Shown piece by piece: positions 43,829 to 58,375 of a DNA stretch of 64,000 bases. The DNA is from Dehalococcoidia bacterium (lineage in GTDB: Bacteria > Chloroflexota > Dehalococcoidia > Lucifugimonadales > G963668185). Below the pieces are notes generated by a model, which worked only from the letters and a program-made list of their open reading frames with translations, had not been told where the DNA came from and did not search any database. Location: contig OZ253485.1 in assembly GCA_965261935.1 (NCBI GenBank), positions 1,139,005 to 1,203,004 of the forward strand. The letters run 5' to 3'. Within the stretch, counting starts at the first letter, position 1. Every line of letters starts with the position of its first letter. The position numbers and the translations under genes were made by a program.

Positions 43829-44995
43829 TTACGTGTTGTAGGCGCCCTTCTCCCGGTTGTATTCCTGACGCCAGTTCCTGGGCAGGTCCTTGAATCTACT
43901 CAGGCGAATGCCGTCTATGTCTATCGATGACTCCCCGTGCATGACGAGATCCGCTGCTACCTTGCCGGTGGCAGGCGACGGCGCGAATCCGAAGCTAGCG
44001 AGCGTAACGACAACGTAGTTGTTGGGATTGTCCAGCGTGTCAATGATCGGCGAGTAGTCGGGCGTAGTCTCCACAATGCAGGCCCAACTGCGGATTAGCG
44101 GCACGTCTCCGGCACCCTCCCACAACTCATAAATGCGGCGAGCTATGTTGCGTATTATGTGAGTGTTCGGCTTGCTAGGGGAGTCCATATCATCGATGTC
44201 GGTCCACTCGTGCGGGCCGCCGCCGTATGCCAAATTCCCGCGCTTGGTCTGGCGGCCATATAGGCCGTTTCCGCTTACGGCACCCGACCACATTGGCTCC
44301 AGAGGCGCGGTTACCGCGATCTCGGGCCGGAACGGCGACGTCGGCACAAAGGCTCCCACCATCTCTGCCAGCGCAGTCGTCTGTGCGCCCGCGGCCGACA
44401 CCACGAAGTTTGTCTCTATGTCGCCTTCGGACGTCTCGACTGCCGTAACGCTTTCTCCCTGGACCTTGAAACCGGTCACCGTCACGTGCTGCAGGATCCT
44501 GGCGCCGTGGTCCTGGGCGGCCCATGCGTATGCCTGAACCGAACGCTGTGGGTTCGCGTGGCCTCCCAGCGGATTGAACAGCCCACCCAAGACGCGCGGC
44601 GAGATAAGCGGGGCCATATCCTTGATGGTATCCGCGTCAAGCAACTTCGCGTCTACTCCCATCTCCTGAAACTCGGGGATCATTTCCTTCTGGAAGTTAA
44701 GGGAGTCTTCATGCAGAGCAACGTTGATGGTCCCCGGCTCGTACTCAGTCGGATATCCCAACTCGTCATCCATCGTTGGCCAGAGCCGTGCTGCCTCCAT
44801 GCGCAGAGCACGATCCTTCAGTTCGGACACGCCACCCGCCCCGACCATGCCGCCATTGCGGCTCGAAGACTCGTACCCGATCACTCCCTTTTCGATGACC
44901 AGCACATCGACTCCGGCTTTGGCAAGCCACCATGCGGTGCTCAACCCGCTGACTCCGGCTCCTATGACTACTACTTCAGCCTTGTCGAATGCCAT
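43829..44995 (-). CDS. FAD-dependent oxidoreductase, opine oxidase subunit B / sarcosine oxidase beta / HcnC-like
   Basis: N-terminal VVVIGAGVSGLSTAWWLAKAG...VIEKG dinucleotide fold. 388 aa, paired with the upstream OoxA-like gene. Confidence 0.7.
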   Translation of the reverse strand: MAFDKAEVVVIGAGVSGLSTAWWLAKAGVDVLVIEKGVIGYESSSRNGGMVGAGGVSELKDRALRMEAARLWPTMDDELGYPTEYEPGTINVALHEDSLNFQKEMIPEFQEMGVDAKLLDADTIKDMAPLISPRVLGGLFNPLGGHANPQRSVQAYAWAAQDHGARILQHVTVTGFKVQGESVTAVETSEGDIETNFVVSAAGAQTTALAEMVGAFVPTSPFRPEIAVTAPLEPMWSGAVSGNGLYGRQTKRGNLAYGGGPHEWTDIDDMDSPSKPNTHIIRNIARRIYELWEGAGDVPLIRSWACIVETTPDYSPIIDTLDNPNNYVVVTLASFGFAPSPATGKVAADLVMHGESSIDIDGIRLSRFKDLPRNWRQEYNREKGAYNT

Positions 44996-45056
44996 TGGGA
45001 CTCTCCTAAAGCGACTACTCGGTCTTGACGGCCGATCTATGGACCCGGGAGGCTCG

Positions 45057-46613
45057 TTACTGCCCCGGCGCGTGAGGTCCTACAGGACCCCTTCTGAAGT
45101 TGCGCGGCATATGCAACCAGCCGGACCACCTGTCACGCAACTCCTGTGCTTCATCATGCGCGTAAATGATCTTCAGCGGCAACGGGCGTACGGGCGCGCG
45201 GTAAGAGGCCAATGGCACTTCGGCCAGCGGCGTCCCCGTACTGTGGGCTAACAGCATCGACACTTGGTCTCGGCAACGGCGGCCCTGGCAATAGCCCATG
45301 CCAGCCCTGGTCAGACGCTTGACCTGGTCCTGGTCCACAGGCCCGTCCTTCAGGAGCGTATCTATGTTCCGGCGGGTCATTTCTTCGGAATTCCACCCCA
45401 AGTAACGAGGGGGAGCAACGTTCAGCAACTCTCCTTGCGTCACCTCTTCGCACCGGCAGACAAGTACGTCGCTTCCTCCGGTCTCACGCAGGGAGTCGAA
45501 CCAGCGCTGACGATAATCAAACGCCTCGGTGCCATCCAAGCCACCGGACGGAGTTAGCTCCACTACACGCCTGTCAGCAGCCGCTCTGTCCAGAGCGGCG
45601 AGGCTCTGAGCCGCCGCCGTGCCTGCAATGCGACCCTGTGCTACGGCGGTCGAGGCATCGGAGCAAACGCCGGCGCCAACCCCTGCGGCGTCGCCCGCAA
45701 CGTATACGCCCGGAACGCTGGTCTCCATGTTGTGGTCAACATCCGGAGCCCAGCCTCCAAGCTCAGGTCTGAAAGCCATCTGGCATCCGGTTATGAATGC
45801 GATGTCGGACATCGGAGTTTGGCCGATAGCGAAGACAACAGAATCGCAGTCCAAGGTACTTGCTTCGCCGACCGGAGTCATTGAACCGTCAACGCCCGAG
45901 ACGACAATGCCGGTGACCTCGTCACCATCCGTTCGTACCTCCACAACAGTGGTGGAGAGGAAGATCGGGATGCCACGCGCCTCCAACTTTGTTCTAGTCG
46001 CGACATTCCCGCTCGGGTCCGAGGACACGTCGACTATGCCAGCGACCTCAAGGCCCATGTCAGCCGCCGTTTGAGCGACCTCCATGCCGAGATCATTGGC
46101 ACCGAGCACAACCAGCCGCCGGGACGACAGCGCCTGATACCGCCTGGCGAGGCTCAAAAAGCCACCCGCTCCCATCACCCCAGCTGCGTCCCAGCCCTTG
46201 ACCGCAAGAGCGAAGTCTCGTGCGCCCGGGGCCAGAATCAGGCGTTCATACTCGATCATCCAAGAATGCTCTGTATCGGCGAGGCCTAGCACTGGGAACT
46301 CGTGCTGGTAGCTGTGGTCTTCGTTCTTGAAGCTGCCCCAGACACTGATGCCCAACCGCACGTCCACTCCAGCCTCTTCGGCCTGCTGGAGTAGTTCGCC
46401 GGAGGTAACGTATCGTTCCAGCATCAAAGCTCGGTTTCGTACTGTGTTCACATACCGCTCACCGAACATGAGCGGCACGTCCATGGCCAACATCGTGGGC
46501 TCAATAGGGTTCTCGTCGAACAGCACGACGCTCAACCCCGCCTCTGCGGCCTCAATCGCCGCCGACGCTCCAGCCGCTCCAGCTCCAACGACCGCAACCT
46601 GTACGCGTTCCAT
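45057..46613 (-). CDS. FAD/NAD(P)-binding oxidoreductase with a BFD-like [2Fe-2S] domain, opine oxidase subunit A / HcnB-like
   Basis: ORF 45057..46634. ATG 46613 lies 8 nt after GGAG. Motifs VAVVGAGAAGASAA, a second Rossmann motif, CRCEEV and GYCQGRRC Cys pairs. Confidence 0.7.
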   Translation of the reverse strand: MERVQVAVVGAGAAGASAAIEAAEAGLSVVLFDENPIEPTMLAMDVPLMFGERYVNTVRNRALMLERYVTSGELLQQAEEAGVDVRLGISVWGSFKNEDHSYQHEFPVLGLADTEHSWMIEYERLILAPGARDFALAVKGWDAAGVMGAGGFLSLARRYQALSSRRLVVLGANDLGMEVAQTAADMGLEVAGIVDVSSDPSGNVATRTKLEARGIPIFLSTTVVEVRTDGDEVTGIVVSGVDGSMTPVGEASTLDCDSVVFAIGQTPMSDIAFITGCQMAFRPELGGWAPDVDHNMETSVPGVYVAGDAAGVGAGVCSDASTAVAQGRIAGTAAAQSLAALDRAAADRRVVELTPSGGLDGTEAFDYRQRWFDSLRETGGSDVLVCRCEEVTQGELLNVAPPRYLGWNSEEMTRRNIDTLLKDGPVDQDQVKRLTRAGMGYCQGRRCRDQVSMLLAHSTGTPLAEVPLASYRAPVRPLPLKIIYAHDEAQELRDRWSGWLHMPRNFRRGPVGPHAPGQ

Positions 46614-46789
46614 TTGGCCACTCCTGAACATCACTACCGTCCTCTATCGCCGCCTGTAGGACGCTCCCGCATGTCAGCCAATGGTACATGAAGGCACCGC
46701 ATGTTCAAGGGGCGTCCGTTCCTTCAAATCGCGGCATGCGCAGCAGGTCAATACGCTAACAGTGGGGGACATGACACGGGCGAATGCGG

Positions 46790-47491
46790 CTAGAAGTCCG
46801 TGACCTCCTGGTCCGAAAACTCGCTCGCCATCCTCAAGCGGTGCGGGCAGACCTTCTCGTACCCTGCCGAGGGAACGAATTCGACGCGTTGACCACCGTC
46901 AGCGGTATCGACTGTGACCAGCGTGAAAGTCGCGTCCTGGAGCGCGGCGTCAGGGGTGCCGGACCCAGGCTGTGCGATAGCGACACTCTCGGTCACGCTG
47001 TCCGATTCCACTTCCGGTTCAGCTTGTGTTACTAAATCTGCGTCTCCTTCAACGAACTCTTCAACTTCCACATAGGTCGATGTTCGTGCCAACTTGGGAG
47101 CGTAGCGCCCATCCATATCCGCGGAACCTAATCTCCCGGCAGTCGACAGTGCCGCCGTCCTGGCAAATTGAACGAGCCTGTCGTGATCAACCCGATCATC
47201 CGGGCCAGAGTCGCTGTTATAGACAGGAGCCGCCGCTTTTGCGCCAATCAAGACCGTGGATGCGCTGTCATCACGTGCAGCTTCAGTCTTGGAAGCCTCG
47301 TCTTGTAAAACCAACCCCGTGACAGCGATCGCGTCAGAGTGTTGTGGCTCGGCGGCAGCGTCGAACTGGAGCGTAGGCGCGGCGGAGGCCCCGCAACCGA
47401 CGAGTAGCGTCAAGAGCACAATGGCCAACGGCGGCGCCATCAGTAGTCTACGCTTCCGCAACACCGTCCACCTCACCTGACTGACTGCCAT
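46790..47491 (-). CDS. Acidic lipoprotein of unknown function, last gene of the transporter unit
   Basis: ORF 46790..47551. ATG 47491 lies 7 nt after the permease stop. Lipobox LLVGCG. Confidence 0.5.
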   Translation of the reverse strand: MAVSQVRWTVLRKRRLLMAPPLAIVLLTLLVGCGASAAPTLQFDAAAEPQHSDAIAVTGLVLQDEASKTEAARDDSASTVLIGAKAAAPVYNSDSGPDDRVDHDRLVQFARTAALSTAGRLGSADMDGRYAPKLARTSTYVEVEEFVEGDADLVTQAEPEVESDSVTESVAIAQPGSGTPDAALQDATFTLVTVDTADGGQRVEFVPSAGYEKVCPHRLRMASEFSDQEVTDF

Positions 47492-47498
47492 GTCCTGG

Positions 47499-48503
47499 TT
47501 ACTGTTGACCCCGCAGACGCGGGTCAAGCAAATCGCGTAGGCCGTCTCCAAGGAGGTTTATTCCAAGCACAACGAAGCTGATGGCTATCCCTGGGAATAT
47601 CGCCAGCCACGGCGCGTTAAACACGTGCGTGACCTGCGACATGGTCAGCATCCCGCCCCACGTGGGGTTGGGGGGAGGCACGCCATAGCCCAGGAAGCTA
47701 AGTGACGCTTCGTACAGAATGGCCCCGCCCAAGCTTAACGTTGCCAAGGTGATAATCGGCGCGGCCACGTTCGGCATAATGTGGCCGAACACAATTCTAG
47801 CGTCGTTGGCACCCAACGCCCTGGCGGCAGTAACGTACTCGCTTTCCTTCACAACCAAGGCCGCGGACCGAATGATCCTGGAGTTCCAAGGCGTCCAGAG
47901 TATACCTAGCGCCAGAATGATCTTGGTCATGGCCCAGGGCGCCAGCGGCATGAACCCCACTCTGGTGGGCAGAATCGTCACCAAAGTTATCAGCACGGGA
48001 AGAGCCGGAAACGTGAGCCATGCGTCAACGAGCCGCTGTATGAACAGGTCGAATTTACCACCGAACCACGCCGAGCCCACACCAAGCACCGCTCCGAAGA
48101 AAATTCCGAACGCGACCGTGCCGATGCCCACCAGCACCGACGTGCGTCCTCCGTGAATTACCAAGCTCATGAAGTCTCTGCCGTTAATGTCAAGGCCCAT
48201 GGGATGTCGCCAGCTTGGCCCTGGAACCTCCCAAACGCCGTAGTCAGGCTGGCTCTCGCTCGCATCGCCTTCTTCCGCCAGATGCGTACGAATCCTGTCG
48301 AGGTTAGGTTCGTTGATCCCCTCCGGCGCGATCCACGTGGCAAAGATCCCGATGATCAGGAAGAAAAGCATGATCACGAGGCCGACAGTGGCCAGCGGCT
48401 TGGTCCTGACCAACTGGATCCAGAGGTCAACGTACCAAGCCCTGGACTTGGCCCGAGAGAGTACTTCTTCAGCTCTATGAGTTGGAGTGATCTCCGTAGT
48501 CAT
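47499..48503 (-). CDS. ABC transporter permease, DppC/OppC type
   Basis: Six TM segments and the EAA loop YVTAARALGANDARIVFGHIMPNVAAPIIT. Confidence 0.85.
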   Translation of the reverse strand: MTTEITPTHRAEEVLSRAKSRAWYVDLWIQLVRTKPLATVGLVIMLFFLIIGIFATWIAPEGINEPNLDRIRTHLAEEGDASESQPDYGVWEVPGPSWRHPMGLDINGRDFMSLVIHGGRTSVLVGIGTVAFGIFFGAVLGVGSAWFGGKFDLFIQRLVDAWLTFPALPVLITLVTILPTRVGFMPLAPWAMTKIILALGILWTPWNSRIIRSAALVVKESEYVTAARALGANDARIVFGHIMPNVAAPIITLATLSLGGAILYEASLSFLGYGVPPPNPTWGGMLTMSQVTHVFNAPWLAIFPGIAISFVVLGINLLGDGLRDLLDPRLRGQQ

Positions 48504-48559
48504 GCGTTTACTCCTTGCTCGTGCGACTCCGAAAGCCGTAGGCGACCTTTAGCCATGAA

Positions 48560-50512
48560 TCAACCGTAATGAATTCTGGGATCCAGCCAGCCGTAGGTCA
48601 TGTCCACCATCAGGTTTGAGAGTAGTACTCCTGCCGCGAAGACCAGGTTTATGCCCTGTATCACCGGGTAGTCTCGGAGCCTTACCGCGTCCAGCAGCAG
48701 GCGGCCAATCCCCGGCACACTGAACAGGCGCTCGATTATCACCAGCCCGCCTACAATCAGCGGGACCTGCATGCCGATGATCGTGACCACCGGTATCAGG
48801 GCGTTCTTCAGCGCGTGCCGGTATATCACCACGCGTTCCCTCAACCCCTTCGACCACGCCGTTCGCACATAGTCCTGCCTTAGCACCTCCAGCATCATGG
48901 AACGCGTCATGCGCATGACGCTGGCAGAACCGAACAGCCCACCCACCAGAACCGGAATTGCAAAGAACTTGAGATTTGCCAATGGGTTGTCGAAGAAGAA
49001 GATGTACTGCAAAGGCGGGGTCCAGTCTAACAGTACAGCCGGAAGCAGGATCACCATTGTTCCGAGCCAGAAGCTGGGTACGGCCAGTCCCGTGATGGCG
49101 ATGGTCCTGCCGGTATAGTCCATCCACGTGTCCTGCCGGACGGCGGACAAGATGCCCAGCGGGACCGCCACCGCCGTGGCCAGAAGAATGGTCATCACGC
49201 CAAGCTGCAGCGTAGGCGCCAGTGTTCGGGACAAGTCCTCGGTAACGGTACGCGTTCCCACGAGCGACTTCCCGAGATTGCCCCCGATGGCGCCCCATTG
49301 CCAGAAGCTCTTCGAGGAGGCCACGAAATAGCGGAACTCTCCGGTGCGTTCACTCTGGATCGGCCACGCGGACAAGAGATCCTTGGCAGGAATCGGCTCG
49401 TCGTCCGGATCGATTAGCAGCAAGCGCTTCCACGACTCTCCACCGTCTAGAGTCTCCAGCATCAGGCCGTTGTTGCCGTAGGCAAATCCTCGCTGCTCGT
49501 CAACCAACCCGACGCCCCGCAGAGTTTCACGCAAGGCCACTGGCTCGCCGGGTGCATCGCCCTCGAGCACATAGGCCACATCCAACGTGCGCCAGGATAT
49601 CCCGGCGTCGTCACTTCGGGTGACCGTGCCGTCTTCACCCACGGCCACGGCCTTGGTGCCGACGAAGGCTACCGACAGCAGGCGCTCCGACGTGCCGCTC
49701 CCCACTGTGCTCCACGTTCCTCCCCCGTCGGTCGTGCGTAGGATCACGCCGCCGCCGCCGACGGCAAGGCCGTTGTCGACGTCCGCAAAGGCCGCTGCGT
49801 GCAGGCTTTCAGACGTGCCGCTGTTCTGCGAACGCCACGTCGAGCCGCCGTCTGAGGTTGTTATGATCGTACCGTCGTTGCCCACGGCCCAGACGTTCTC
49901 GGTGTCCAGGGCTACTATGTCCGCCAGGTCCTGAGTGACGCCTGACGATTGCTCGAACCAGGTGCTCTCTCGTCTGCCGCCGCCGGTCGTGGGTCGTCCG
50001 CCCTCCTCGCTGTATAGGATGGCGCCTTTATTGCCCACAGCCCAGACATCGTCCACGTCGAACGCGGCTATGGCGGTCATGTCCTCATCAGTCTTGTGCT
50101 GGGGTGTCCAGGTGCGGCCAGAGTCGCCGCTTCCCCAGAGTATCTGCTTGCCTACCGACCAGCCGACTCGGTTCGTGACAAACGTCAGGTCCGTAACCGG
50201 GTCCGCCGAAAACTCTCCAAGTTCGCGCCAGATCCCGTCGCCGAATCCACTGCGCAGAACACGGCCTTCCTGGTCGGTCCAGCCCAAGATGAACCGAATG
50301 TACTGGACCGCGAACGGGTCATCGAGACCGAGCCTGGCCTTCAGAATCGCAAGTTCCCGCTCTCCAAGCGTAGTTGAGACATCCCGGCCGGCCCCCAAAT
50401 ACGCTTGTAAGGCGTCGCCGGGCATCACGCGCGCAATTCCCGCCACGAAGAACGAGGCGATCAACAGCGTTGGAACTAAGAGCAGGACGCGTCTGAGCAG
50501 ATAGATGCGCAT
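48560..50512 (-). CDS. ABC transporter permease, DppB/OppB type, with a ~330-aa Asp-box (BNR) repeat insertion in the first external loop
   Basis: The N-terminus MRIYLLRRVLLLVPTLL..MPGD..QYIRFILGW and the core from GGNLGKSL to the EAA loop RTAWSKGLRERVVIYRHALKNALIPVVT are family-typical. Residues ~79-409 carry SGDSGRTW, TSDGGSTW, TTDGGGTW, RSDDAGISW, TLDGGESW and one degenerate copy. Confidence 0.8.
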   Translation of the reverse strand: MRIYLLRRVLLLVPTLLIASFFVAGIARVMPGDALQAYLGAGRDVSTTLGERELAILKARLGLDDPFAVQYIRFILGWTDQEGRVLRSGFGDGIWRELGEFSADPVTDLTFVTNRVGWSVGKQILWGSGDSGRTWTPQHKTDEDMTAIAAFDVDDVWAVGNKGAILYSEEGGRPTTGGGRRESTWFEQSSGVTQDLADIVALDTENVWAVGNDGTIITTSDGGSTWRSQNSGTSESLHAAAFADVDNGLAVGGGGVILRTTDGGGTWSTVGSGTSERLLSVAFVGTKAVAVGEDGTVTRSDDAGISWRTLDVAYVLEGDAPGEPVALRETLRGVGLVDEQRGFAYGNNGLMLETLDGGESWKRLLLIDPDDEPIPAKDLLSAWPIQSERTGEFRYFVASSKSFWQWGAIGGNLGKSLVGTRTVTEDLSRTLAPTLQLGVMTILLATAVAVPLGILSAVRQDTWMDYTGRTIAITGLAVPSFWLGTMVILLPAVLLDWTPPLQYIFFFDNPLANLKFFAIPVLVGGLFGSASVMRMTRSMMLEVLRQDYVRTAWSKGLRERVVIYRHALKNALIPVVTIIGMQVPLIVGGLVIIERLFSVPGIGRLLLDAVRLRDYPVIQGINLVFAAGVLLSNLMVDMTYGWLDPRIHYG

Positions 50513-50634
50513 CAGCCTTCTCCTTCAATCGTCAAACAGCACGGGCCGTACCCTTTGGCGATAATGTATCCGGAGGGGCAAGCCCGGGCTTGCCCCTCCA
50601 GCATTTTCTTACCCAGATCCGGGAGTTTTGGAGG

Positions 50635-52608
50635 TTACTTTTCCCAGTCCCACTCGGTGCGGGATGGGTGGGTGTGGTCCGCCCACGCGCTCAGGTACAT
50701 GTCCTGAATCCAGATGCCGGCAGTGAACGCGCCCGGATTCTTCACCCACTCGGGGAACACGTTCTCATTAGTCCAGTTGGGCACTGCCCAGTCGTATTGC
50801 ATTTCGGCAATGTGTCTCTGGATGTCTTCGTACACTACCCGGCGCTTAGTCGGGTCAAGCTCTCTGCGCCCCTTGAGGATCAACTCATCGAGGTAGGGGT
50901 CGTTGGCGCCCCCGGCGTTAAACTCTGAGTCGCTGTAGTATCGGTTGTAGAACAACGTGTCCGGCTCCCTGGAGCCGGTCGAGTCGTACCTTACAGCCAA
51001 GCCGGTGTAGTCGCCGGATAGGACGGACTGGAACTCGGCTTGATCCACGCCCAGTATCTCAGCCTCGATGCCGATCTTGGCTAAGTCGGCCACTATTCGG
51101 GTGGCGATGTCCAAGATTGCCGTATCCGGCTGTTGGATAGACATCGTGGTCTTGATCGGCTCGTCCGGGTCCAGACCCAACTCTATCTTGCCCTCGCGGA
51201 TGTATTGTTGGGCCAGTTCCAAGTTCAAGGTGTTATCAGGGAAATTCGTGTAGAACTGCTGGCCGTCAGGCGTAAGTTCTTCTGTGGGAACGTACCAAGG
51301 ATTGTCCAGGGCGGCCCAGCGCGCGGGCTGAACACCGCCGCAGCACGGTGCCCAGGCTTCGAAGCTGATGTCGTTGTACATCGCGACGCCCCAGCGGATC
51401 TTCTTGTTCAGCCAAGGGCCTTCCAGCTTGGGACCGTAGAAGTACGTGGTCCAAGCACCTCCGCCGGCCGGATGGTAGTTGTACAGCAGTTCAGGCTTGT
51501 CCAACCACGTAATCATGTTGTCTTTGAGCGCGCCCCACGCGCCCCAGATCTGCCACGCGGGCCCTGCGTCCAGCAGGCCGGCCCTATACGCGGCAATAGC
51601 GGCCGGCTCGTCCGGTATAACTATGCCGTGGATCTGCTCAACGTACGGGTAGTCCTCGCCGGTTACTCCATTGGGGCCTCGCCAGTAGTCCTCGTGCCGC
51701 AACTGGGTGATCTGGGTCCCGACATCGTAGGACTCCATGTACCACGGGCCCGTCCTGATGGTCGCCTCCCAATCGTCAAGGCCGCCGAACTCCTCTTCCG
51801 CCTCGGGCGGCTGGATCGCGTAAAACGTTACGCCGATTACGGTCATGAACGGAGCAAAAGGTTCCTCGAACTTGAACTCGACTGTGTAGTCGTCCAGCGC
51901 GGTGATACTGGTCAGAGGACCCAACGGGCCTCCGTAGCGCCCTCCGGGGCGGAGCCGCCGCTCGAAGCTGTATACCACATCGTCGGCCACCATTTCACGT
52001 CCGTTGACAGGCGGTTTGTCGGAGAACTTCACACCCTGCCGCAAAGCAAATCTTATTGTCGTGTCGTCCACGAACTCCCAGGACTCCGCGAGACTGGGGA
52101 GGGATCTGAGGTCCCAAGGCTCCATCGGGTTGTCGGCACGATAGCGGACCAGCGTGTCTGCCATTAACCTTTCGGGAGCAGTGGGGTACCGCTTGTCAGT
52201 GTCCCATGTAGTGTAGTCATTTCCACGCAGCCTGAGCACGCTGTTCTTGTTGGGCGGGTCGTCCGTCCAAACGGATATCCCTCGGGCCTTGAAGATGTTG
52301 TCTTCGTTGATCTCAGATGCGGACTGTATGGAAATCTCTCCAACGACCGGCGCAGCTACGTACTCACCTTCTTCGATTACGTCTTCAGGCTCCACAGCAA
52401 CCATGGACTCGTCGGTCTCCTCCATGGTTTCTTCAGCCATCGTGTCTTCGGCCGCCATGGAGTCGTCGTCCTCTTCCATCGACTCATCCGTACTCGTGAC
52501 CTCGTCAGGCTCCTCCTCTTCGGCGGCTCCGCAGGCCACGGCACCCATGAGGAGCAGGACAACGGCCAAGGACCCGGCTAGGTGCCAAAACGCTCGCCAC
52601 TTCTTCAT
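50635..52608 (-). CDS. ABC transporter substrate-binding lipoprotein, family 5 (peptide/opine/nickel type), with an acidic Met-rich tether
   Basis: Lipobox AVACG, then EEEEPDEVTSTDESMEEDDDSMAAEDTMAEETMEETDESM, then a family-5 SBP core (PPVNGREMVADDVVYSFERRL). Confidence 0.8.
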   Translation of the reverse strand: MKKWRAFWHLAGSLAVVLLLMGAVACGAAEEEEPDEVTSTDESMEEDDDSMAAEDTMAEETMEETDESMVAVEPEDVIEEGEYVAAPVVGEISIQSASEINEDNIFKARGISVWTDDPPNKNSVLRLRGNDYTTWDTDKRYPTAPERLMADTLVRYRADNPMEPWDLRSLPSLAESWEFVDDTTIRFALRQGVKFSDKPPVNGREMVADDVVYSFERRLRPGGRYGGPLGPLTSITALDDYTVEFKFEEPFAPFMTVIGVTFYAIQPPEAEEEFGGLDDWEATIRTGPWYMESYDVGTQITQLRHEDYWRGPNGVTGEDYPYVEQIHGIVIPDEPAAIAAYRAGLLDAGPAWQIWGAWGALKDNMITWLDKPELLYNYHPAGGGAWTTYFYGPKLEGPWLNKKIRWGVAMYNDISFEAWAPCCGGVQPARWAALDNPWYVPTEELTPDGQQFYTNFPDNTLNLELAQQYIREGKIELGLDPDEPIKTTMSIQQPDTAILDIATRIVADLAKIGIEAEILGVDQAEFQSVLSGDYTGLAVRYDSTGSREPDTLFYNRYYSDSEFNAGGANDPYLDELILKGRRELDPTKRRVVYEDIQRHIAEMQYDWAVPNWTNENVFPEWVKNPGAFTAGIWIQDMYLSAWADHTHPSRTEWDWEK

Positions 52609-52674
52609 AAGACCCTCCTTGCCGTTCTTGATTCGCTGTCCTGGATTCCCCCTACGTCTTGTGAGTGAAACCCT

Positions 52675-54684
52675 TTACTCCTCCCACTCCCACTTGGACC
52701 TGGACGCGTGGCTATCATCCACCCACGCCGTCAGGTACATGTCCTGTATCCAGCGGCCGGTTGTGAACGGGCCGGGGTTCTTGACCCACTCAGGGAACAC
52801 GTTCTCGTTGGTCCAGTTCGGGACCGCCCAGTCGTACTGCATTTCGGCCAAATACATCTGTATTTCCCTGTAGACCTGTTCTCTTTGTGCCGGGTCCAGT
52901 GTTGACTGGCCCTGAATGATCAAATCATCCAGGTGTGGGTCGTTGGTGCCAGGCTGATTCAGTTCGGACTCGCTGTGAAAGCGATTGTAGAACAGGGTGT
53001 TGGGGTCTTTGGCCGGAGTGACATACTGAACGACAAGTCCTGTGAAGTCGCCTGCAACGACGGACTGGAACTCATTCTGGTCGTTGGCAACAATCTCCGC
53101 TTCGATGCCGATTTTAGCCAGGTCCGCCACTATGCGGGTTGCGATGTCGAGTATCGCCGTATCAGGCTGCGCGATGGTCATCGTGGTCTTGATCGGCTCG
53201 TCCGGGTCCAGCCCCAGCTCCATCTTGCCCTCCCGGACATACTGCTGCGCTTTCTCCAAGTCCAGGGTGTTTTCCGGGAAGTTCGTGTAGAACTGGGCGC
53301 CGTCCGGCGTCAGGTCCTCGGTGGAAACGAACCACGGGTTGTCCAAGGCGGCCCAGCGAGTGGGCTGAGCGCCACCGCAGCAGGGCGCCCACGCCTCAAA
53401 GCTGATGTCGTTGTACATCCCCACGCCCCACCGGATCTTCTTGTTGACGAACGGACCCTCCAGCTTGGCGCCGTAGTAGTAGGTGGTCCAGGCGCCACCG
53501 CCAGCCGGATGGTAGTTGTAGACCAGTTCAGGCTTGTCCAGGAACGTGATCATCTGGTCTTTCAGAGCGCCCCACGCGCCCCAGATCTGCCAGGCCGGCC
53601 CAGCGTCGAGCAGGCCGGACCTGTAGGCAGCTACTGCTGAGGCCTCTTCCGGGATCACCACGCCGAATATCTTGGAGGCGTACGGAAGGTCCTCGCCGGT
53701 TACACCGTTCGGCCCCCTCCAGTAGTTATCGTTCCTGACCTGTGTTGTCAGCGTGCCAACCTCATAGGCCTCCATTTCCCATGGGCCGGTCCTGATGGCG
53801 GCCTCCCAGTCGTCCAGCCCACCGAACTCCTCCTCCGCCTCCGGCGGCTCTATTGCATAGGGAGTGATCCCGATCACGGTCATGAACGGAGCAAAGGGCC
53901 TCGAAAACTTGAACTCCACCGTGTAGTTGTCCAGCGCCGTGATGCTCTCGACAGGACCCAGCACCGCGCCGTGGCGGCCACCGGGCCGCAGACGCCGCTC
54001 GAAGCTGTACACGACGTCTTCGGCCACCAATTCACGTCCGTTCACGGGGGGCAGGTCCGCCCAGAGCACGCCCTGCCGCAGCGAGAACCTGATGGTCGTG
54101 TCGTTCACGAACTCCCAGGACTCAGCCAGACCGGGCAGCGGCCTCAGGTCCCAGGGCTCCATCGGGTTGTCCGCCCGGAAGCGAACCAGTGTGTCATCCA
54201 TCAGGCGCTGGGGAGCCGTAGGCGTGCCTCTCTTGTCACTGTCCCAGGACGGATAGTCTGTGCCCCGCAGCCTGAGAATGCTGTCCTTGTTGGGGGGCGC
54301 GTCCGTCCAAACGGAGAGGCCGCGAGCCTTGAAGATGTTGTCCTCGTTGATCTCGGAAGCGGACGTAATGTAGATCTCACCGACAACCGGCTTGGCTATG
54401 TAAACGCCGGATTCGTCTTCAACCGCTTCGAACTCGGTGTCCTCCGCGGCCATGGAATCGTCAGTCTCTTCCATGGTGTCTTCAGCGGCCATGGAATCGT
54501 CCGCTTCATCCATGGTGTCCTCGGCGGCCATGGAATCGTCTGCCTCTTCCATGGTGTCTTCCGTGGTTGTGACCTCGTCCGGCTCATCCTCTTCGGCGGC
54601 CCCGCACGCGGCTACCGCGAAGATAAGTGCGAATAAAGCCAGCAACCCGGCAAGCTTAAGAGTTATCTGCTTCGTGAAGTGCAT
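52675..54684 (-). CDS. ABC transporter substrate-binding lipoprotein, family 5; tandem paralogue of the downstream gene
   Basis: ORF 52675..54810. ATG 54684 follows GGGAGGG. Lipobox VAACG. Three 13-aa acidic repeats, and a core alignable to the neighbour along its full length. Confidence 0.8.
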   Translation of the reverse strand: MHFTKQITLKLAGLLALFALIFAVAACGAAEEDEPDEVTTTEDTMEEADDSMAAEDTMDEADDSMAAEDTMEETDDSMAAEDTEFEAVEDESGVYIAKPVVGEIYITSASEINEDNIFKARGLSVWTDAPPNKDSILRLRGTDYPSWDSDKRGTPTAPQRLMDDTLVRFRADNPMEPWDLRPLPGLAESWEFVNDTTIRFSLRQGVLWADLPPVNGRELVAEDVVYSFERRLRPGGRHGAVLGPVESITALDNYTVEFKFSRPFAPFMTVIGITPYAIEPPEAEEEFGGLDDWEAAIRTGPWEMEAYEVGTLTTQVRNDNYWRGPNGVTGEDLPYASKIFGVVIPEEASAVAAYRSGLLDAGPAWQIWGAWGALKDQMITFLDKPELVYNYHPAGGGAWTTYYYGAKLEGPFVNKKIRWGVGMYNDISFEAWAPCCGGAQPTRWAALDNPWFVSTEDLTPDGAQFYTNFPENTLDLEKAQQYVREGKMELGLDPDEPIKTTMTIAQPDTAILDIATRIVADLAKIGIEAEIVANDQNEFQSVVAGDFTGLVVQYVTPAKDPNTLFYNRFHSESELNQPGTNDPHLDDLIIQGQSTLDPAQREQVYREIQMYLAEMQYDWAVPNWTNENVFPEWVKNPGPFTTGRWIQDMYLTAWVDDSHASRSKWEWEE
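54448..54564 (-). repeat. Three perfect-period 39-bp tandem repeats inside the SBP gene, encoding the DDSMAAEDTMxEx tether
   Basis: Plus-strand units start with GGCCATGGAATCGTC at 54448, 54487 and 54526. Confidence 0.85.
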
Positions 54685-54808
54685 GTGACCCTCCCAGGTT
54701 GATGTCAGGTACCTACAATCACGCCTAATCCTCCACGGCCTCGCAGTGCCGTTGAAGGATTCTCGCCGCCGCGCCTTGTGGTCCCTTCTTCTATTATGCG
54801 TTGGGCAC

Positions 54809-54836
54809 ACTATACGAACAAGAATCGCAGTGTCAA
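54809..54836 (-). promoter_or_regulatory. Candidate sigma70-type promoter for the SBP/permease transporter unit
   Basis: On the minus strand: TTGACA (54836-54831), 16-nt spacer, TATAGT (54814-54809), about 120 nt upstream of ATG 54684. Confidence 0.5.
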
Positions 54837-54850: not shown

Positions 54851-56329
54851 TCACAAAGCGACGGGAGGCAACTTGCCTCGAGCGGGCGACTCCTGTTCAT
54901 ATCGGCTCGCGATGCCGTAAAGCAGCGGCTCTTCGAATGGCCGGCCAATGAGCTGCAGGCCGGCCGGCAACCCATTCTCCGCAAACCCGGCGGGGACCGT
55001 TATGGAGGGCAGGCCGGTGGTGTTGGAAAGTCGCGTGTTTCGCGAGGCTATGTTCTGGAACCGGGCCGCGTGGACCGGCGGGACGCCGCCCTCCGGGCCG
55101 CGTGCGCCGAGGTCCATCGCGGGCACTGTAACTCCCCCCACGTCCATGGAGTGAGCGTCCTTGCGGAACGCGGTGATGGGCACGGTGGGCGTTGCGAGCA
55201 CGTCGACGTCCTGGAGGATACGGTAGAAGTCCTGCATGATAAGCCGCTGCGCCTTCATGGACTTCACATAGTCGCGGGCGAGTACGAACTGACCGGCCAA
55301 AAGGCGGTGCAGCATCTCTGGCCGATATAGATGCCTCCTGCTCTCCAGGTAAGGTTCGTGCGTGACGAAGCCCTCGGCGGCCATCCCGATGTACATGAGG
55401 TTAATAAACTCCACGCACTCGATGTCCACGGGCCGAACGTCCGCGCCCATGTCTTCAAGCTTGGTGATGGCGGCGCGCACAAGGGCCTCCACACAAGGGT
55501 CGAGCGGAGTGGCGAAGTAATGCGCGGCTGGAACGCCAACTTTGATCCCGGACAGGTCGCGCCCAAGCTCTGCGCAGAAGTCAGGCACGGGAACCGGCAC
55601 CGAGCTCGGGTCCAGCGGGTCGCTGCCCGCAATCGCCTGCAAGACCAGTGCATTGTCCCGAACGCTCCGGGTCATGGGTGCGATATGGTCACCATTGAAG
55701 CTGGTTGCCAGCAACCCCCTCTGGCTTACACGGCCGAACGTCTGCTTCATGCCCACGATTCCCGACATCGCGCATGGAATCCGGACCGAGCCGCCCAGGT
55801 CCGTGCCCAAGGACGCAAACGTCACGCAGGCCGCCACGTTGGCGCCGCTGCCTCCACTCGATCCACCCGCGACGTAGTCCGGGTCCCAGGGATTCGAAAC
55901 CGAGCCGTAGTAAGGATTGTCGCAGGGCACGCCCCCTGCAAACTCGTGGAGGTTCTCCTTGCCCAGGATGATTGCCCCGGCGCTCTTGAGCCGCTCCACG
56001 GCGTACGCGTCTGAGTCAGGTACGTGATCTTCGAACACTCTTGACCCGATCGTGGTCAGGACGCCTTCCGTGGCGATGTTGTCTTTCAGGCCAACGGGGA
56101 TGCCGTCCAAGGGCCCGCGATAGCCGCCGTTCGAGATCGAGCGCTCTCGCTCTGCCGCCTCTTCGAGGGCAGCCTCGGCCCGAAGGGTTATGAATCCCTT
56201 TAGCAGGGGCTGGAGTCGCTCGGCCTGCTCGATGGCGGCCCTGGCGACCTCTACGGGCGAGACGGCACCCGACTCAATCATGGGCGCGACCTCGGAGATG
56301 GTCATCGTCAGCAGTTCATTAGCGGCCAT
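54851..56329 (-). CDS. Amidase-signature enzyme (GatA/AtzE-like)
   Basis: GGSSGGSGANVAA amidase signature and a Ser-cisSer-Lys context; 492 aa. Confidence 0.85.
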   Translation of the reverse strand: MAANELLTMTISEVAPMIESGAVSPVEVARAAIEQAERLQPLLKGFITLRAEAALEEAAERERSISNGGYRGPLDGIPVGLKDNIATEGVLTTIGSRVFEDHVPDSDAYAVERLKSAGAIILGKENLHEFAGGVPCDNPYYGSVSNPWDPDYVAGGSSGGSGANVAACVTFASLGTDLGGSVRIPCAMSGIVGMKQTFGRVSQRGLLATSFNGDHIAPMTRSVRDNALVLQAIAGSDPLDPSSVPVPVPDFCAELGRDLSGIKVGVPAAHYFATPLDPCVEALVRAAITKLEDMGADVRPVDIECVEFINLMYIGMAAEGFVTHEPYLESRRHLYRPEMLHRLLAGQFVLARDYVKSMKAQRLIMQDFYRILQDVDVLATPTVPITAFRKDAHSMDVGGVTVPAMDLGARGPEGGVPPVHAARFQNIASRNTRLSNTTGLPSITVPAGFAENGLPAGLQLIGRPFEEPLLYGIASRYEQESPARGKLPPVAL

Positions 56330-56540
56330 TATCTTTGACCTCCGGATACAGGGCGATTATGCGTCCGGAGACCACGCCGGACAGGTCCATACCATCGAAT
56401 CGCCTGGCGGCACGTGCGTAGGCTTGCACGATCGGAACTGCGGCGTCCAGTTCACTTTCGGTCAACGGCATGATGTCGAAGTCTTGCATCATTCGTCGGA
56501 GCGTTTCTCTTCCCACGGTTGGTTCGGTTGGTTCCTGCAT
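56319..56540 (-). CDS. Small protein translationally coupled to the amidase, possible AtzG/GatC-like partner
   Basis: ORF 56319..56603. ATG 56540 follows GGAG and lies after the upstream stop. 73 aa. Its stop overlaps the amidase start by 11 nt (gatATGgccgcTAA). Confidence 0.5.
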   Translation of the reverse strand: MQEPTEPTVGRETLRRMMQDFDIMPLTESELDAAVPIVQAYARAARRFDGMDLSGVVSGRIIALYPEVKDNGR

Positions 56541-56580
56541 TTGCGCTCCATTCCAGCCGGTGCCGCTTGCCAGCGTCCGG

Positions 56581-57537
56581 CTAATAGCCTTTGCTCTTGT
56601 CAATCACACTCGAGAGGGCGTCTCCGTCCAAGAGTCTCCTCAGGTTCTCGCAGAACAGGTCCACGATGCGGTCGCCCCTGACCGGAGAGCCGCCGGCCGT
56701 GTGTGGCGTGACCACGACGTTGCTCATTCGCCAAAGCGGGTTGTCTTCCGGCAGAGGTTCCTGCGGCGTAACATCCAACCCGGCTCCGCCGATGACGCCG
56801 TTGGAGAGAGCGTTCAACAGCGCCGCTTCGTCCACGATCTTACCTCGCGTTACGTTAATCAACAGCGCGTGGCTTCTCATCCGCGCGAAAGCGCTTTCGT
56901 CGAACATGCCCTCGGTCTCGGGAGTGAGCGGCGCGCAGACCGCCACCACATCGGATTCCTCAAGGAGGTTGTCAAACGCCTCCATTCCCTTACACGCCTC
57001 TACCTGCGGGGGCACTTCGACGGATTGAGGGTCCACGGCGACGATCCGCATACCAAAGGCGTGGGCTCGAACGGCCAGATCTCGGCCGGTGCCGCCGAGG
57101 CCGACGATGCCCATGGTCAGACCCTCGAGCTCCCATGAGACGTCTCTAATGGGCATGCGCTGGTCCCAACGCGGGTTGCGAATCGCGGTGGCGATGCCGC
57201 GAGTCAAGGCGAGCAACAACGCCATGGCGTGATCGGCCAGGTGGACTCCCACGATACCCTTGGCGCTGGTAAGTACCACATCGCTCTCAACGAACTGCGG
57301 GAACAGGACCGAGTCCACACCGGCACTAGTCGCCTGTACCCATCGCAGCCTGCGGGCGCGTTCGAGCATCGCAGGCGTGAGCGTGCCGAACACTACGTCT
57401 ACGTCGGGCATCGCCTCCAAGACCTCTCCTTCGGATGGCAGGTCAAGCAAGTCGATATCGGAAGACACGGCCTTGATTTGCTCAATATGCCGAGCTTCAA
57501 CTCCGTCTTCGGACCTCAAGTTTAGCAGGATGTTCAA
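56581..57537 (-). CDS. D-isomer-specific 2-hydroxyacid dehydrogenase family protein (NAD-binding)
   Basis: GIVGLGGTGRDLA Rossmann motif, NVTRGKIVDE, LDVTPQEPLP and TPHTAG. TTG 57537 lies 7 nt after GGAGG; the ORF track extends to 57717. Confidence 0.75.
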   Translation of the reverse strand: MNILLNLRSEDGVEARHIEQIKAVSSDIDLLDLPSEGEVLEAMPDVDVVFGTLTPAMLERARRLRWVQATSAGVDSVLFPQFVESDVVLTSAKGIVGVHLADHAMALLLALTRGIATAIRNPRWDQRMPIRDVSWELEGLTMGIVGLGGTGRDLAVRAHAFGMRIVAVDPQSVEVPPQVEACKGMEAFDNLLEESDVVAVCAPLTPETEGMFDESAFARMRSHALLINVTRGKIVDEAALLNALSNGVIGGAGLDVTPQEPLPEDNPLWRMSNVVVTPHTAGGSPVRGDRIVDLFCENLRRLLDGDALSSVIDKSKGY

Positions 57538-57553
57538 ATGCAAACCTCCCCTG

Positions 57554-58375
57554 TTAGCCGGGCGGACTGTCCTCGCCTGCGGGCGGCGCGTTGAGTTCGC
57601 CTCTTTTGGAAGCCTGCCACAGCGCTTCCTTCTCGTCCATGGAAACGTCACCCAGTGAAAGGCCGCGTCCGTTAACAGTCTGCTCCATTTCACTGAAGCG
57701 GTGCCGGAACCGGGCATTGGCGCCCCTGAGCGCGGACTCGGCGTCGATGCTCATCCAACGGGCGGCGTTCACCAAGGAGAAGAGGACATCGCCCAGCTCG
57801 GCCTCCCTCTCGGCGTCAGTCTCCGCCGTCCTCAGTTCGGCAACCTCTTCTGTCAACTTGTCGAAGACGCCTTCCACACCGTTCCAATCGAATCCCTGCC
57901 GGGCGGCTCGCTCCTGTACCGAAAGGGCGTAAGCCAGAGCTGGCATGCTTCTGGGCACGCCATCCAGCGAGGAAGCGCTGACCTCCGATCTCTCGGAGCG
58001 CTTGATGACTTCCCACTGACGCTTCACTTCGTCCGGCGTGTACGCTTCGGCGTCGCCAAACACGTGTGGGTGACGGCGGACTATCTTGTCGATCAGCCCG
58101 CCGAACACGTCTGCGGGGCCGAAGACTTCGGACTCGGCAGCTAACTCGATCTGGAAGGACAGGTTAATCGCTACGTCTCCCAGCTCCTCAGCCAGCGCAT
58201 TGGCGTCGCCAGACTCGATGGCCTCCAGGAGTTCGTAGCACTCCTCCAAGAGTCCGGCCTTGAGCGAATCGTGGGTCTGCTCACGGTCCCACGAGCAGCC
58301 TTCGGGGCTGCGCATGAACGCCGTTAGCTTCAGTACGCCCTCGAAAGTGTCAGGGAAGTCGCTCCGGTTTGTCAT
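57554..58375 (-). CDS. mazG: MazG-family nucleoside triphosphate pyrophosphohydrolase (tandem MazG domains)
   Basis: EECYELLEAIE and ELGDVLFSLVNAARW motifs in two repeats. Start at ATG 58375. Confidence 0.8.
   Translation of the reverse strand: MTNRSDFPDTFEGVLKLTAFMRSPEGCSWDREQTHDSLKAGLLEECYELLEAIESGDANALAEELGDVAINLSFQIELAAESEVFGPADVFGGLIDKIVRRHPHVFGDAEAYTPDEVKRQWEVIKRSERSEVSASSLDGVPRSMPALAYALSVQERAARQGFDWNGVEGVFDKLTEEVAELRTAETDAEREAELGDVLFSLVNAARWMSIDAESALRGANARFRHRFSEMEQTVNGRGLSLGDVSMDEKEALWQASKRGELNAPPAGEDSPPG

Follow-up and report, generated by a model that had tools for sequence, protein, structure and literature searches.

The membrane subunits of type I importers have been thought of as minimal, and the P2 loop of MalF has been treated as a singular exception. 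This permease-borne periplasmic domain binds the substrate-binding protein (SBP) throughout the transport cycle, and in Bdellovibrio (B. bacteriovorus) a MalE-MalF fusion joins a receptor domain to the translocator (PMC6906923 and work cited therein). Within the Dpp family, residues 32–62 of DppB form a scoop motif that enters the cleft of DppA; the alpha2 helix of the scoop touches the N-lobe of DppA and is directly followed by helix alpha3 (PMC12136057). An extracytoplasmic propeller of a different kind is known from Ycf48, which wraps the C-terminal tail of D1 and binds it with a patch of arginines (R180, R196, R215, R219, R220, and R237; PMC10403576).

The stretch of DNA analyzed here (64 kb, hereafter the window) contains a gene in which two such elements are combined. 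Its product belongs to the Dpp/Opp (peptide/nickel/opine) family of type I ABC importers that depend on binding proteins, in which it is a B-type membrane subunit, and a complete seven-bladed Ycf48-like Asp-box propeller of ~328 aa is located inside its first extracytoplasmic (TM1-TM2) loop (table 1).

Architecture of the Propeller Permease

The open reading frame is intact, encodes 650 aa, ends with the stop codon at 48560–48562, and begins with an ATG that is preceded by a strong Shine–Dalgarno sequence (AAGGAG). A first-pass annotation had described it as a DppB/OppB-type permease of 650 aa; the ORF and the quoted translation were reproduced, and the protein has the PGD motif, an RTA coupling helix, and six transmembrane (TM) helices. 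The Pfam domain BPD_transp_1 matches aa 449–648 with 115.1 bits (cutoff 26.4). The match of BPD_transp_1_N to aa 3–77 is weak (22.3 bits, just under the cutoff of 23.8), and the same domain is above the cutoff in four out of five other members of the family that were scanned (P0124, which passes barely with 23.9 bits, P0134, P0143, and P0181). The matches of the NCBIfam permease models are split in two, one part on either side of the insert, and none of the models reaches its equivalog cutoff (the best is Opp2B with 264.5 bits against 350), so that the gene is not assigned as an ortholog of a characterized transporter (DppB, OppB, NikB, or GsiC).

When aa 79–403 are removed, the 325 aa that are left align over their full length with residues 4–337 of E. 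coli DppB (8z1v_A, E = 6.5e-60), and the earlier statement that the N-terminal part and the TM core are collinear with the family therefore holds exactly. The TM core aligns with DppB residues 70–337, and a Foldseek comparison with 8z1v_A gives a TM-score of 0.70 and an rmsd of 3.2. Helices are predicted in the AlphaFold2 (AF2) model at aa 2–29, 423–458, 463–495, 510–555, 560–596, and 615–643. The sequence RTAWSKG at aa 550–556 is aligned to the RTA motif of DppB, and the EAA loop covers aa 550–577 (nt 48782–48865). The scoop region is kept just upstream of the insert and includes the PGD motif and R43, which hardly varies within the propeller-permease family and is aligned to R42 in the scoop loop of DppB; alpha3 corresponds to QYIRFILGW. 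The pLDDT of the scoop region is low, as expected of a flexible element.

The insert follows helix alpha3 and precedes the GDxGxS motif of periplasmic loop 1; in DppB, this site corresponds to the interval between QQYLHYI (alpha3) and WGVMHGDLGIS. The range assigned to the insert in the first-pass annotation (nt 49286–50278) is right for the minus strand, and its placement of the loop outside the cytoplasm agrees with the solved DppBCDF and OppBCDF complexes, in which the TM1-TM2 loop is periplasmic (PMC12136057).

Table 1. Coordinates of the propeller permease, its parts, and the neighboring genes within the window.
Feature	Position (nt)	Strand	Evidence
Whole gene, DppB-type permease with inserted propeller	48560–50512	-	ORF, Pfam/NCBIfam matches, Shine–Dalgarno sequence, gap-free contigs of runs X4, X10, and X12
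N-terminal module, aa 1–77: TM1 (aa ~2–29), scoop-motif region (aa ~30–62), alpha3 (aa 67–76)	50282–50512	-	Aligns with DppB 4–69
Inserted seven-bladed propeller, aa 78–405	49298–50281	-	Pfam PSII_BNR, AF2, Foldseek
Transmembrane core, aa 406–650: WQWG-GGNLGKS motif, TM2 to TM6, RTA coupling helix	48563–49297	-	BPD_transp_1, DppB alignment, model helices
Partner C-type permease, 334 aa, OppC_N + BPD_transp_1	47499–48503	-	Pfam/NCBIfam
Family-5 substrate-binding lipoprotein 2 (SBP 2), 657 aa, 53-aa poly-acidic tether after the lipobox Cys	50635–52608	-	SBP_bac_5, 149 bits
Family-5 substrate-binding lipoprotein 1 (SBP 1), tandem paralog of SBP 2	52675–54810	-	Pfam SBP_bac_5
Amidase-signature enzyme, head of the gene string	54851–56329	-	Pfam Amidase, 371 bits
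Two downstream flavoprotein genes: SoxA/HcnB-like (45057–46634) and SoxB/DAO-like (43829–44995)	43829–46634	-	Domain matches
Small acidic putative lipoprotein, right after the C permease	46790–47551	-	ORF; likely start Met 47491 or 47440

Fold and Conserved Residues of the Insert

The Pfam family PSII_BNR/Ycf48 matches the insert in four stretches with a score above the cutoff (80 bits). In the AF2 model, aa ~78–405 form a closed propeller of seven four-stranded blades with pLDDT values that are mostly between 85 and 97. A first alignment that consisted of 16 family sequences only gave a confident propeller and a poor TM domain (pLDDT 69.5); after the alignment was rebuilt with 86 ordinary permeases, the model reached a pLDDT of 84.3 and a pTM of 0.70 and contained six TM helices. 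The best Foldseek matches of the propeller are structures of Ycf48 (5ojr/2xbg/8am5_S) with TM-scores of 0.65–0.71 (~0.69 over ~313 columns), and no single PDB chain in this search spans both the propeller and the permease half. Pfam, the AF2 fold, and Foldseek agree on an Asp-box/BNR propeller of the Ycf48 type, as had been proposed from the repeats, and the insert is thus indeed predicted to fold as a propeller.

The count of six repeats in the first-pass annotation was one too low. Seven blades are present and seven Asp-boxes are found at aa 88–95, 128–135, 168–185, 219–226, 260–267, 299–307, and 354–361. The overlooked box at aa 88–95 (SGFGDGIW) is degenerate in this protein and has the canonical form T-x-DGG-x-TW in the paralogs. 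It is part of the closing blade, which is built from the first (aa 78–101) and the last (aa 378–405) strands of the insert, so that the two ends of the propeller meet. The adjacency in sequence and the short linkers suggest that the propeller would sit on the outer face of the permease, by the docking site, held by very short connections.

The insert has a net charge of -24. Its invariant residues are structural (Gly, Trp, and the Asp of the Asp-boxes) and therefore no catalytic constellation is apparent; the family retains one invariant Arg, and no acidic residue, His, or Tyr beyond the structural motifs qualifies as an invariant candidate. Among 16 family members, conserved basic positions within the insert are limited to 87, 96, 140, 377, and 394, none of which is in blades 3–5. 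The most conserved basic residues (R/K87, R/K96, K/R377, and R394) belong to the closing blade, and their role may be limited to attachment to the permease. Weak matches of the insert to Sortilin-Vps10 were also identified.

Authenticity and Evolutionary Origin

Contigs from the independent sequencing runs X4, X10 (RNA), and X12 (RNA) cross both junctions of the insert without gaps or indels, and the gene sequence is present in metatranscriptome assemblies. A frame break that splits the ORF into separate genes, which had been considered at first, is seen in none of the contigs. Apparent rearrangement joints in the run contigs (“goes back 2023” and “skips 247”) were explained by contigs running into the paralogous SBP gene.

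A neighbor-joining tree of the TM core (100 bootstraps) recovers the propeller-permease family as monophyletic (100/100), and the insertion point is the same to the residue across relatives that are 35–88% identical. The insertion happened once, and the whole SBP-B-C unit was then duplicated within a lineage of Dehalococcoidia metagenome-assembled genomes (MAGs), in which one genome can contain as many as three paralogous SBP-B-C operons. Purifying selection acts on the insert (dN/dS = 0.12, compared with 0.04 for the core). Sequence identities are 73%, 36–40%, and 36% for the insert, 85%, 32%, and 42% for the SBP, and 93% and 62–67% for the core; the propeller and the SBPs diverge at similar rates, and the TM core changes far more slowly than the propeller.

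Operon Organization and Neighboring Genes

The C-type permease adjoins the propeller permease in the window and also in the loci L001, L002, L003, and L080. A family-5 SBP gene is found directly upstream at every locus with a readable upstream flank (the window, L001, L002, and L003), and L001 contains one SBP at the position where the window contains two. The ORF of SBP 1 is listed from an upstream GTG, and the Met at nt 54684 (MHFTKQ...) is the likely start. The SBPs beside propeller permeases form a clade (75/100 bootstrap) and carry poly-acidic tethers of 53–100 aa with 25–39 Asp/Glu and 0–1 Lys/Arg residues, and no family-specific insertion was identified in the folded part of these proteins. 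A long tether was rejected as a hallmark of the propeller operons because ordinary operons contain equally long tethers of different composition. A comparison with solved structures for a guess at the ligand returned weak N-lobe matches to DppA, HbpA, NikA, and AccA and was uninformative.

An amidase gene likewise lies upstream in L001 and in the paralogous locus L002. The two flavoproteins look like a heterodimeric secondary-amine/opine-type oxidase; the SoxB/DAO-like gene has a counterpart in L001 that is 95% identical, and no SoxA/HcnB-like ORF was recovered there by the ORF picker, which took a 533-aa ORF on the opposite strand. A 2-hydroxyacid dehydrogenase is also among the neighboring enzymes. 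The amidase and the SoxAB-like oxidase hint at amides, N-alkylated amino acids, opine-like compounds, and small peptides as candidate substrate classes. The small acidic lipoprotein has a 40% identical counterpart in L001 and nothing similar in L002 or L003, and it was rejected as a partner of the propeller because it is missing from these paralogous operons. A search for ORFs with a Walker A and an LSGGQ motif found none across the window, none in the regions flanking L001, L003, and L080, and none beside ordinary Dpp operons of the same class. The ATPase subunits are presumably encoded elsewhere in the genome.

Distribution

The full-length architecture was identified in about 27 protein clusters among 5.8 billion proteins, and the best 150 matches in a 1.84-billion library included five full-length representatives and two fragments. 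Wherever the host can be named, the architecture is known only from Dehalococcoidia MAGs, and the sequencing runs with a source shown are sponge metagenomes. The hosts are uncultivated and the window derives from a sponge-associated Dehalococcoidia bacterium. The propeller permease is a real, conserved, and very rare arrangement. No name for it was found in public sources and no paper was found in the literature on a propeller, BNR, or Ycf48 domain within an ABC permease, which agrees with the initial remark that no described importer is known to have a translocator with its own propeller and shows that the arrangement is not a common, catalogued domain combination. The P2 loop of MalF is a precedent for a folded periplasmic domain borne by the translocator, and in no precedent is this domain a propeller.

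Four loci with unusually long tblastn matches were checked as possible further carriers, and only one of them (L047) carries an insert, which is a different domain. The other three (L013, L055, and L077) were rejected as further carriers: they encode ordinary permeases of 314–333 aa and the match spills into the neighboring C permease. L047 (10001–11293) and P0208 are Dpp-type permeases from Dehalococcoidia with a beta-sandwich-like (Ig-like) insert of ~110 aa. They share the bacterial class, the transporter family, and the insertion point (after QY.RW.G.W and before G.LG.S) with the propeller permeases, whereas the insert is unrelated, much smaller, and without a Pfam match. It is an independent insertion event, and the TM1-TM2 loop of Dehalococcoidia Dpp-type permeases is thereby flagged as an insertion hotspot.

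Possible Roles of the Propeller

[quoted passage not shown] It would hold, orient, or select membrane-tethered SBPs at the translocator in the manner of the Ig-like P2 loop. This is tentatively preferred as the best explanation. In its favor are also the conserved scoop region with R43, the family-5 SBP gene upstream at each locus with a readable flank, the similar pace at which propeller and SBPs diverge, the precedent of MalF P2, and the structural nature of the invariant residues of the insert. Several observations count against it. The propeller and the SBP tethers are both strongly acidic, which argues against binding between these two parts. A similar rate of divergence of the SBP and the insert is expected of any surface-exposed domain, and ordinary Dpp-type transporters of the same lineage function without the insert.

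The main rival to docking is the capture of a ligand or of host matrix, which appears possible but somewhat unlikely. Here, the propeller would bind the substrate, or else a macromolecule that carries it (for instance a peptide tail, a glycan, or a component of the sponge matrix), and feed the transporter or the SBPs as a second receptor. Asp-box propellers of this type do bind ligands, as Ycf48 binds the D1 tail (PMC10403576), the structural neighbor DAIP binds proteases, and the weak Sortilin-Vps10 matches point in the same direction; however, the insert has no recognizable conserved binding patch and the Arg patch of Ycf48 is missing. The faster evolution of the propeller relative to the core and its differences between paralogous operons are what a specificity element would display, and several independently diverging copies are present per genome, but a dedicated SBP is encoded upstream wherever the upstream flank is readable. 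Where the source of a run is shown, the habitat is sponge tissue with its abundant polymeric matrix, whereas the neighboring enzymes (amidase, SoxAB-like oxidase, and 2-hydroxyacid dehydrogenase) suggest that the substrate is small and nitrogenous and should require no receptor for macromolecules. That the propeller is a second receptor borne by the translocator, with capture coupled to SBP loading or to importer gating, is considered unlikely.

A role outside the transport cycle, in which the propeller anchors or spaces the transporter in the envelope or S-layer, or serves as a sponge-facing adhesion or recognition domain, is improbable. A loop of a permease beside the docking site is an odd location for an adhesin, and the insertion has survived three or more rounds of operon duplication and is invariably found at the same residue of the B subunit, which suggests a tie to the function of the transporter. 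In favor of such a scaffold, the SBPs are lipoproteins, indicating an apparently single membrane and a loop that would be exposed at the surface, the Ig-like insert of other Dehalococcoidia permeases suggests that the site tolerates decorative surface domains, and the family has so far been found in sponge-derived data wherever a source is shown.

It is highly improbable that the propeller acts as a catalytic domain of the sialidase or glycosidase kind and trims a precursor at the cell exterior ahead of its import. The BNR/Asp-box signature is common to sialidases and GH74 enzymes, GH74 structures are among the distant fold matches, and the NCBIfam model “F510_1955 family glycosylhydrolase” gives a weak match of 34.5 bits, for which the cutoff is 175. 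Yet the best matches are the noncatalytic Ycf48 proteins, sialidases have six blades and not seven, neither a FRIP motif nor a BNR_2 match was found in the insert, and GH74 enzymes require two propellers that form a cleft where a single one is present here. Together with the single invariant Arg and the lack of further catalytic candidates, this disfavors the substrate processing that the first-pass annotation had listed among the possible roles. Finally, a chimeric assembly, mis-joined genes, or a decaying pseudogene (the window is from a MAG, and short-read assemblies break at a high-copy 31-mer within the gene at 48869–48899) is effectively refuted by the 27 clusters with the uninterrupted architecture, which come from many assemblies and in several cases from complete long-read chromosomes, by the junction-spanning contigs of other runs, by the purifying selection on the insert, and by the residue-precise insertion point among divergent relatives.

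The propeller permease represents a second, independent, and much larger case of a membrane subunit that bears a domain, and the propeller is grafted beside the very motif that recent DppABCDF structures have shown to enter the binding protein. Contact between the propeller and the SBP would make this a natural system for studying how single-membrane bacteria recruit, select, or retain tethered SBPs at a translocator; binding to something else would give the translocator itself a part in recognition. The second-receptor reading, if true, would define a new functional class (“receptor-permease”) that is possibly an adaptation to life in sponge tissue. In addition, the protein should offer a concrete, expressible handle on the abundant and functionally obscure “YCF48-related” propellers of nonphotosynthetic bacteria.

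Comparison with Known Systems

The insert shares the seven-bladed Asp-box fold and the PSII_BNR match with Ycf48/HCF136. These are stand-alone proteins, lipoproteins or secreted, whereas the propeller described here is an insert within a permease, and the six-Arg patch is absent from the insert in 16 family members. The match to the NCBIfam Ycf48 equivalog PRK13684 reaches 82.6 bits, below the cutoff of 326, and no photosystem genes were identified in the window. Dehalococcoidia are not oxygenic phototrophs.

Importers such as GlnPQ and OpuA have receptor domains fused to the translocator. Receptor–translocator fusions and the propeller permease have in common a covalent link between the membrane subunit of a type I importer and an extracytoplasmic domain. 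In the fusions, this domain has the SBP fold, is located at a terminus, and replaces the free SBP; in the propeller permease, a domain with a non-SBP fold is located within a loop and the separate SBP genes are kept.

The closest relatives of the permease itself are DppB and OppB, as represented by E. coli DppBCDF (8z1v) and OppBCDF (8z21) and by M. tuberculosis DppABCD (8wd9) and OppABCD (8j5q). TM1, the scoop, alpha3, the GDxGxS motif, TM2 to TM6, and the RTA helix are collinear once the insert is left out, and the operon likewise contains a C-type permease and family-5 SBPs. The differences are the length, ~310–340 aa in DppB/OppB and 650 aa here through the propeller of 328 aa between alpha3 and GDxGxS, and the lack of adjacent ATPase genes at this locus.

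Like MalF P2, the propeller is a large periplasmic domain with a fold of its own that belongs to the membrane subunit of a type I importer, and it would likewise be positioned next to the site where the SBP docks. P2 is Ig-like, comprises residues 91–276, and separates TM3 from TM4 in a permease of the CUT1 family, whereas the propeller comprises ~328 aa and separates TM1 from TM2 in a permease of the Dpp family. The two domains display no kinship in sequence or fold, and the propeller permease has no match to Pfam MalF_P2. As an analogy of position and proposed task, MalF P2 would be the closest functional analog of the docking mechanism.

Gene and Domain Organization

The propeller permease is encoded by an intact ORF (table), the translation of which is exactly the one quoted in the first-pass annotation, and a strong ribosome-binding site (AAGGAG) lies a few bases 5' of its ATG. 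Pfam identified BPD_transp_1 at aa 449-648 (115 bits), PSII_BNR (the Ycf48 family, 80 bits) in four stretches over the middle part and a borderline BPD_transp_1_N at aa 3-77. Opp2B, NikB, GsiC, DppB, and other NCBIfam permease models matched in two pieces that flank the middle region, and none of them reached its equivalog cutoff. Every structural test places the protein in the Dpp/Opp permease family; it is not orthologous to any characterized transporter.

Features of the transporter locus and its flanks
Feature	Position	Strand	Remarks
SoxA/SoxB-like flavoprotein pair	43829-46634	minus	flanks the transporter genes
Small acidic putative lipoprotein	46790-47551	minus	LLVGC lipobox; directly past the C permease gene, overlaps its end
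C permease (partner membrane subunit)	47499-48503	minus	
Propeller permease	48560-50512	minus	intact, 650 aa
Two tandem paralogous family-5 substrate-binding protein (SBP) lipoproteins	50635-54810	minus	one SBP at the orthologous locus L001
Amidase and D-2-hydroxyacid dehydrogenase	54851-57717	minus	flank the transporter genes

The genuineness of the gene was assessed by comparing Logan contigs of independent sequencing runs with window positions 47400-52700. A chimeric assembly at 49.2-50.3 kb had been a concern of the first-pass annotation, and the contigs from run X4 (4385 nt, spanning 47400-50570) and metatranscriptomes X10 (3014 nt, 47445-50458) and X12 (2108 nt, 47911-50018) differ from the window by substitutions only, with zero indels. 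The contigs of run X1 show no differences and a sole break at the 31-mer 48869-48899, the k-mer depth of which exceeds that of the adjacent sequence ~100-fold in each of the four runs. This 31-mer encodes the ultra-conserved SMMLEVLRQDY and recurs in numerous paralogous permease genes of these metagenomes. It is thus vanishingly unlikely that the propeller permease is an artefact. The metatranscriptome contigs indicate that the gene is transcribed, bearing in mind that such libraries can carry DNA. Comparison with the L001 orthologue, which is 83% identical, gave dN/dS values of 0.12 in the insert and 0.04 in each flank; as dS is above 1, these are approximate.

In all four runs a short contig of higher depth leads from 47612, in the C permease gene, to 48800, in the B permease gene, leaving out 1187 nt, with only 20 nt on one side. 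The joint probably reflects a k-mer-level connection between similar permease sequences and not a true deletion.

The Insert Is a Seven-Bladed Propeller

AlphaFold2 was run twice. An alignment of 16 family sequences already gave a confident middle region, together with a poor membrane part; once 86 ordinary permeases had been included, the model reached a mean pLDDT of 84.3 and a pTM of 0.70. In this model seven blades, each of four strands, are built from residues 78-405, and the last blade combines the first two (78-88, 94-101) and the last two (378-386, 393-405) strands of the insert, so that the ends of the domain meet in a geometry that permits insertion into a loop. Very short links connect the propeller to helix alpha3 and to the GGNLGKS motif, the six TM helices follow a DppB-like pattern, and confidence is low at the scoop region, as expected of a flexible element. 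A Foldseek search against the PDB retrieved Ycf48 structures for the propeller part (TM-score 0.65-0.71 over ~313 columns) and matched the membrane part to DppB and OppB (TM-score 0.70, rmsd ~3 Å); no PDB chain spans both halves. The proposed Asp-box propeller-like domain in the first external loop is thereby borne out as a modelled closed Ycf48-like fold, with the number of repeats corrected from six to seven. The overlooked Asp-box (aa 88-95, SGFGDGIW) is degenerate in the window protein and has the canonical form T-x-DGG-x-TW in paralogues.

The Insertion Site Adjoins the Scoop Motif

After deletion of aa 79-403 the remaining 325 aa were searched against PDB sequences. They align with residues 4-337 of E. 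coli DppB (8z1v_A) in one unbroken stretch (E=6.5e-60), as they do with OppB and two mycobacterial homologues, with the joint located between 'QQYLHYI' and 'WGVMHGDLGIS' of DppB. According to the cryo-EM analysis of E. coli DppABCDF, the periplasmic scoop motif (alpha1-loop-alpha2) comprises DppB residues 32-62, located after TM1 and before the short helix alpha3; the motif fills the cleft of docked DppA and contacts its N-lobe through alpha2, and deletion of the motif impairs transport (PMC12136057). The insert therefore starts one residue past alpha3, directly after the SBP-engaging element. The scoop region is kept in the propeller permease and its arginine R43 (aligned with DppB R42) is almost invariant among propeller permeases.

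A different insert of ~110 aa is present in the 430-aa Dpp-type B permease of another Dehalococcoidia MAG (L047:10001-11293, DUFD01000050.1) and in P0208 (423 aa). It interrupts the TM1-TM2 loop precisely where the propeller does, is an unrelated domain, has no Pfam match, and appears beta-sandwich-like in sequence (VSVTPKQVEGGINIVVSALVSNTGETDSDYEV...). Since unrelated domains occupy the same site, the TM1-TM2 loop of Dehalococcoidia permeases seems to be an insertion hotspot.

Distribution and Evolution

Among 5.8 billion clustered proteins, a word-indexed search yielded 27 full-length clusters that combine the permease with PSII_BNR (639-682 aa, 46-100% identical) and two fragments; the remaining matches were ordinary permeases or stand-alone or multi-domain 'YCF48-related' propellers at ~30-35% identity. 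A profile search built on divergent members added no fusion clusters. In an exhaustive phmmer scan against 1.84 billion representatives clustered at 50% identity, the best 150 matches, which extend to 277 bits, contain at least five full-length fusion representatives of 650, 648, 682, 699, and 626 aa, the most distant of them 35% identical, as well as two fragments; very divergent members may score below this level. Pfam verified the architecture of the four new full-length representatives. Within one-genome-per-species GTDB contigs the insert occurs in only 3 out of 79 related loci, all on complete 2.8-3.0 Mb chromosomes titled 'MAG: Dehalococcoidia bacterium'. Sponge metagenomes and metatranscriptomes are among the sequencing runs in which the gene occurs, the host being evident for only part of these runs. 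Public sources hold no name for these proteins, and full-text literature searches turned up no account of an ABC permease that contains a propeller. The propeller permease is real, rare, and undescribed, and its putative propeller function is of interest.

When the TM core was analysed by neighbour joining without the insert columns, the 16 insert-bearing proteins separated from 86 ordinary relatives in 100/100 bootstraps, and TM core identity is 56-98% inside the family versus 43-56% to ordinary permeases. As judged from these sequences, both results indicate a single insertion event. The OZ250142.1 chromosome carries three paralogues (P0010 and those of loci L002 and L003), and P0020 and P0026 share one 3,218,282-bp contig. 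Beside each copy lie a family-5 SBP and a C permease of its own, and the five SBPs adjoining propeller permeases form a clade (75/100, among 50 SBPs from related loci); the SBP-B-C unit was therefore duplicated as a whole. Insert and SBPs diverge at a similar pace, far faster than the TM core.

Gene Neighborhood and Possible Substrate

The minus-strand gene string runs from a 2-hydroxyacid dehydrogenase and an amidase through the two SBPs, the propeller permease, the C permease, and the small lipoprotein to SoxA/HcnB-like and SoxB/DAO-like flavoproteins. These enzymes suggest that an amide or an N-alkylated amino compound is catabolized and point to a small amide or secondary amine as the substrate; no equivalog-level substrate assignment is possible and the SBPs are weakly similar to solved structures. 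An amidase also lies upstream at the paralogous locus L002.

The tandem SBPs are ~72% identical (judged through L001); the first SBP ORF probably extends too far 5', with its likely start at 54684. All SBPs of propeller operons carry a poly-acidic tether past the lipobox Cys (53-100 aa, 25-39 D/E, 0-1 K/R). The small acidic lipoprotein has no Pfam or NCBIfam match, a 40%-identical counterpart at L001, and none in paralogous operons. No ABC ATPase gene (Walker A and LSGGQ) was found in window positions 1-64000, in the flanks of L001, L003, and L080, or beside the ordinary Dpp-type loci L034, L047, L055, L077, L006, and L010. The ATPases are presumably encoded elsewhere in the genome, and are perhaps common to many transporters.

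Role of the Propeller and Comparison with Known Systems

The analysis shows a Dpp-type SBP-dependent translocator with a rigidly attached external propeller adjoining the scoop motif. Tentatively, transport itself would follow the ordinary cycle and the propeller might serve as an accessory protein-binding platform that touches the docked or waiting SBP, a reading held with reserve partly because propeller (net charge -24) and SBP tethers are both acidic. A module for the capture of substrate or host matrix is a less probable role, and a scaffold for envelope or host interactions is unlikelier still. An enzyme is very improbable: a sialidase/GH74-type activity is unlikely because the insert has no FRIP motif and no Arg triad and forms a single propeller of seven blades. 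Invariant positions in the insert are the Gly, Trp, and Asp residues of its repeat scaffold.

The propeller can be set against two known proteins. Ycf48 shares the fold and binds D1 through a six-Arg patch (PMC10403576); this patch has no counterpart in the propeller, where conserved basic residues are found only at 87, 96, 140, 377, and 394, mostly in the closing blade, and the propeller is not a functional member of the Ycf48 family. Among permeases with a periplasmic domain of their own, MalF is the sole well-studied precedent: its P2 loop (residues 91-276) is Ig-like, has micromolar affinity for MalE, and stays bound to it all through the cycle (PMC6906923). The propeller permease resembles MalF P2 in principle and has no homology to it.
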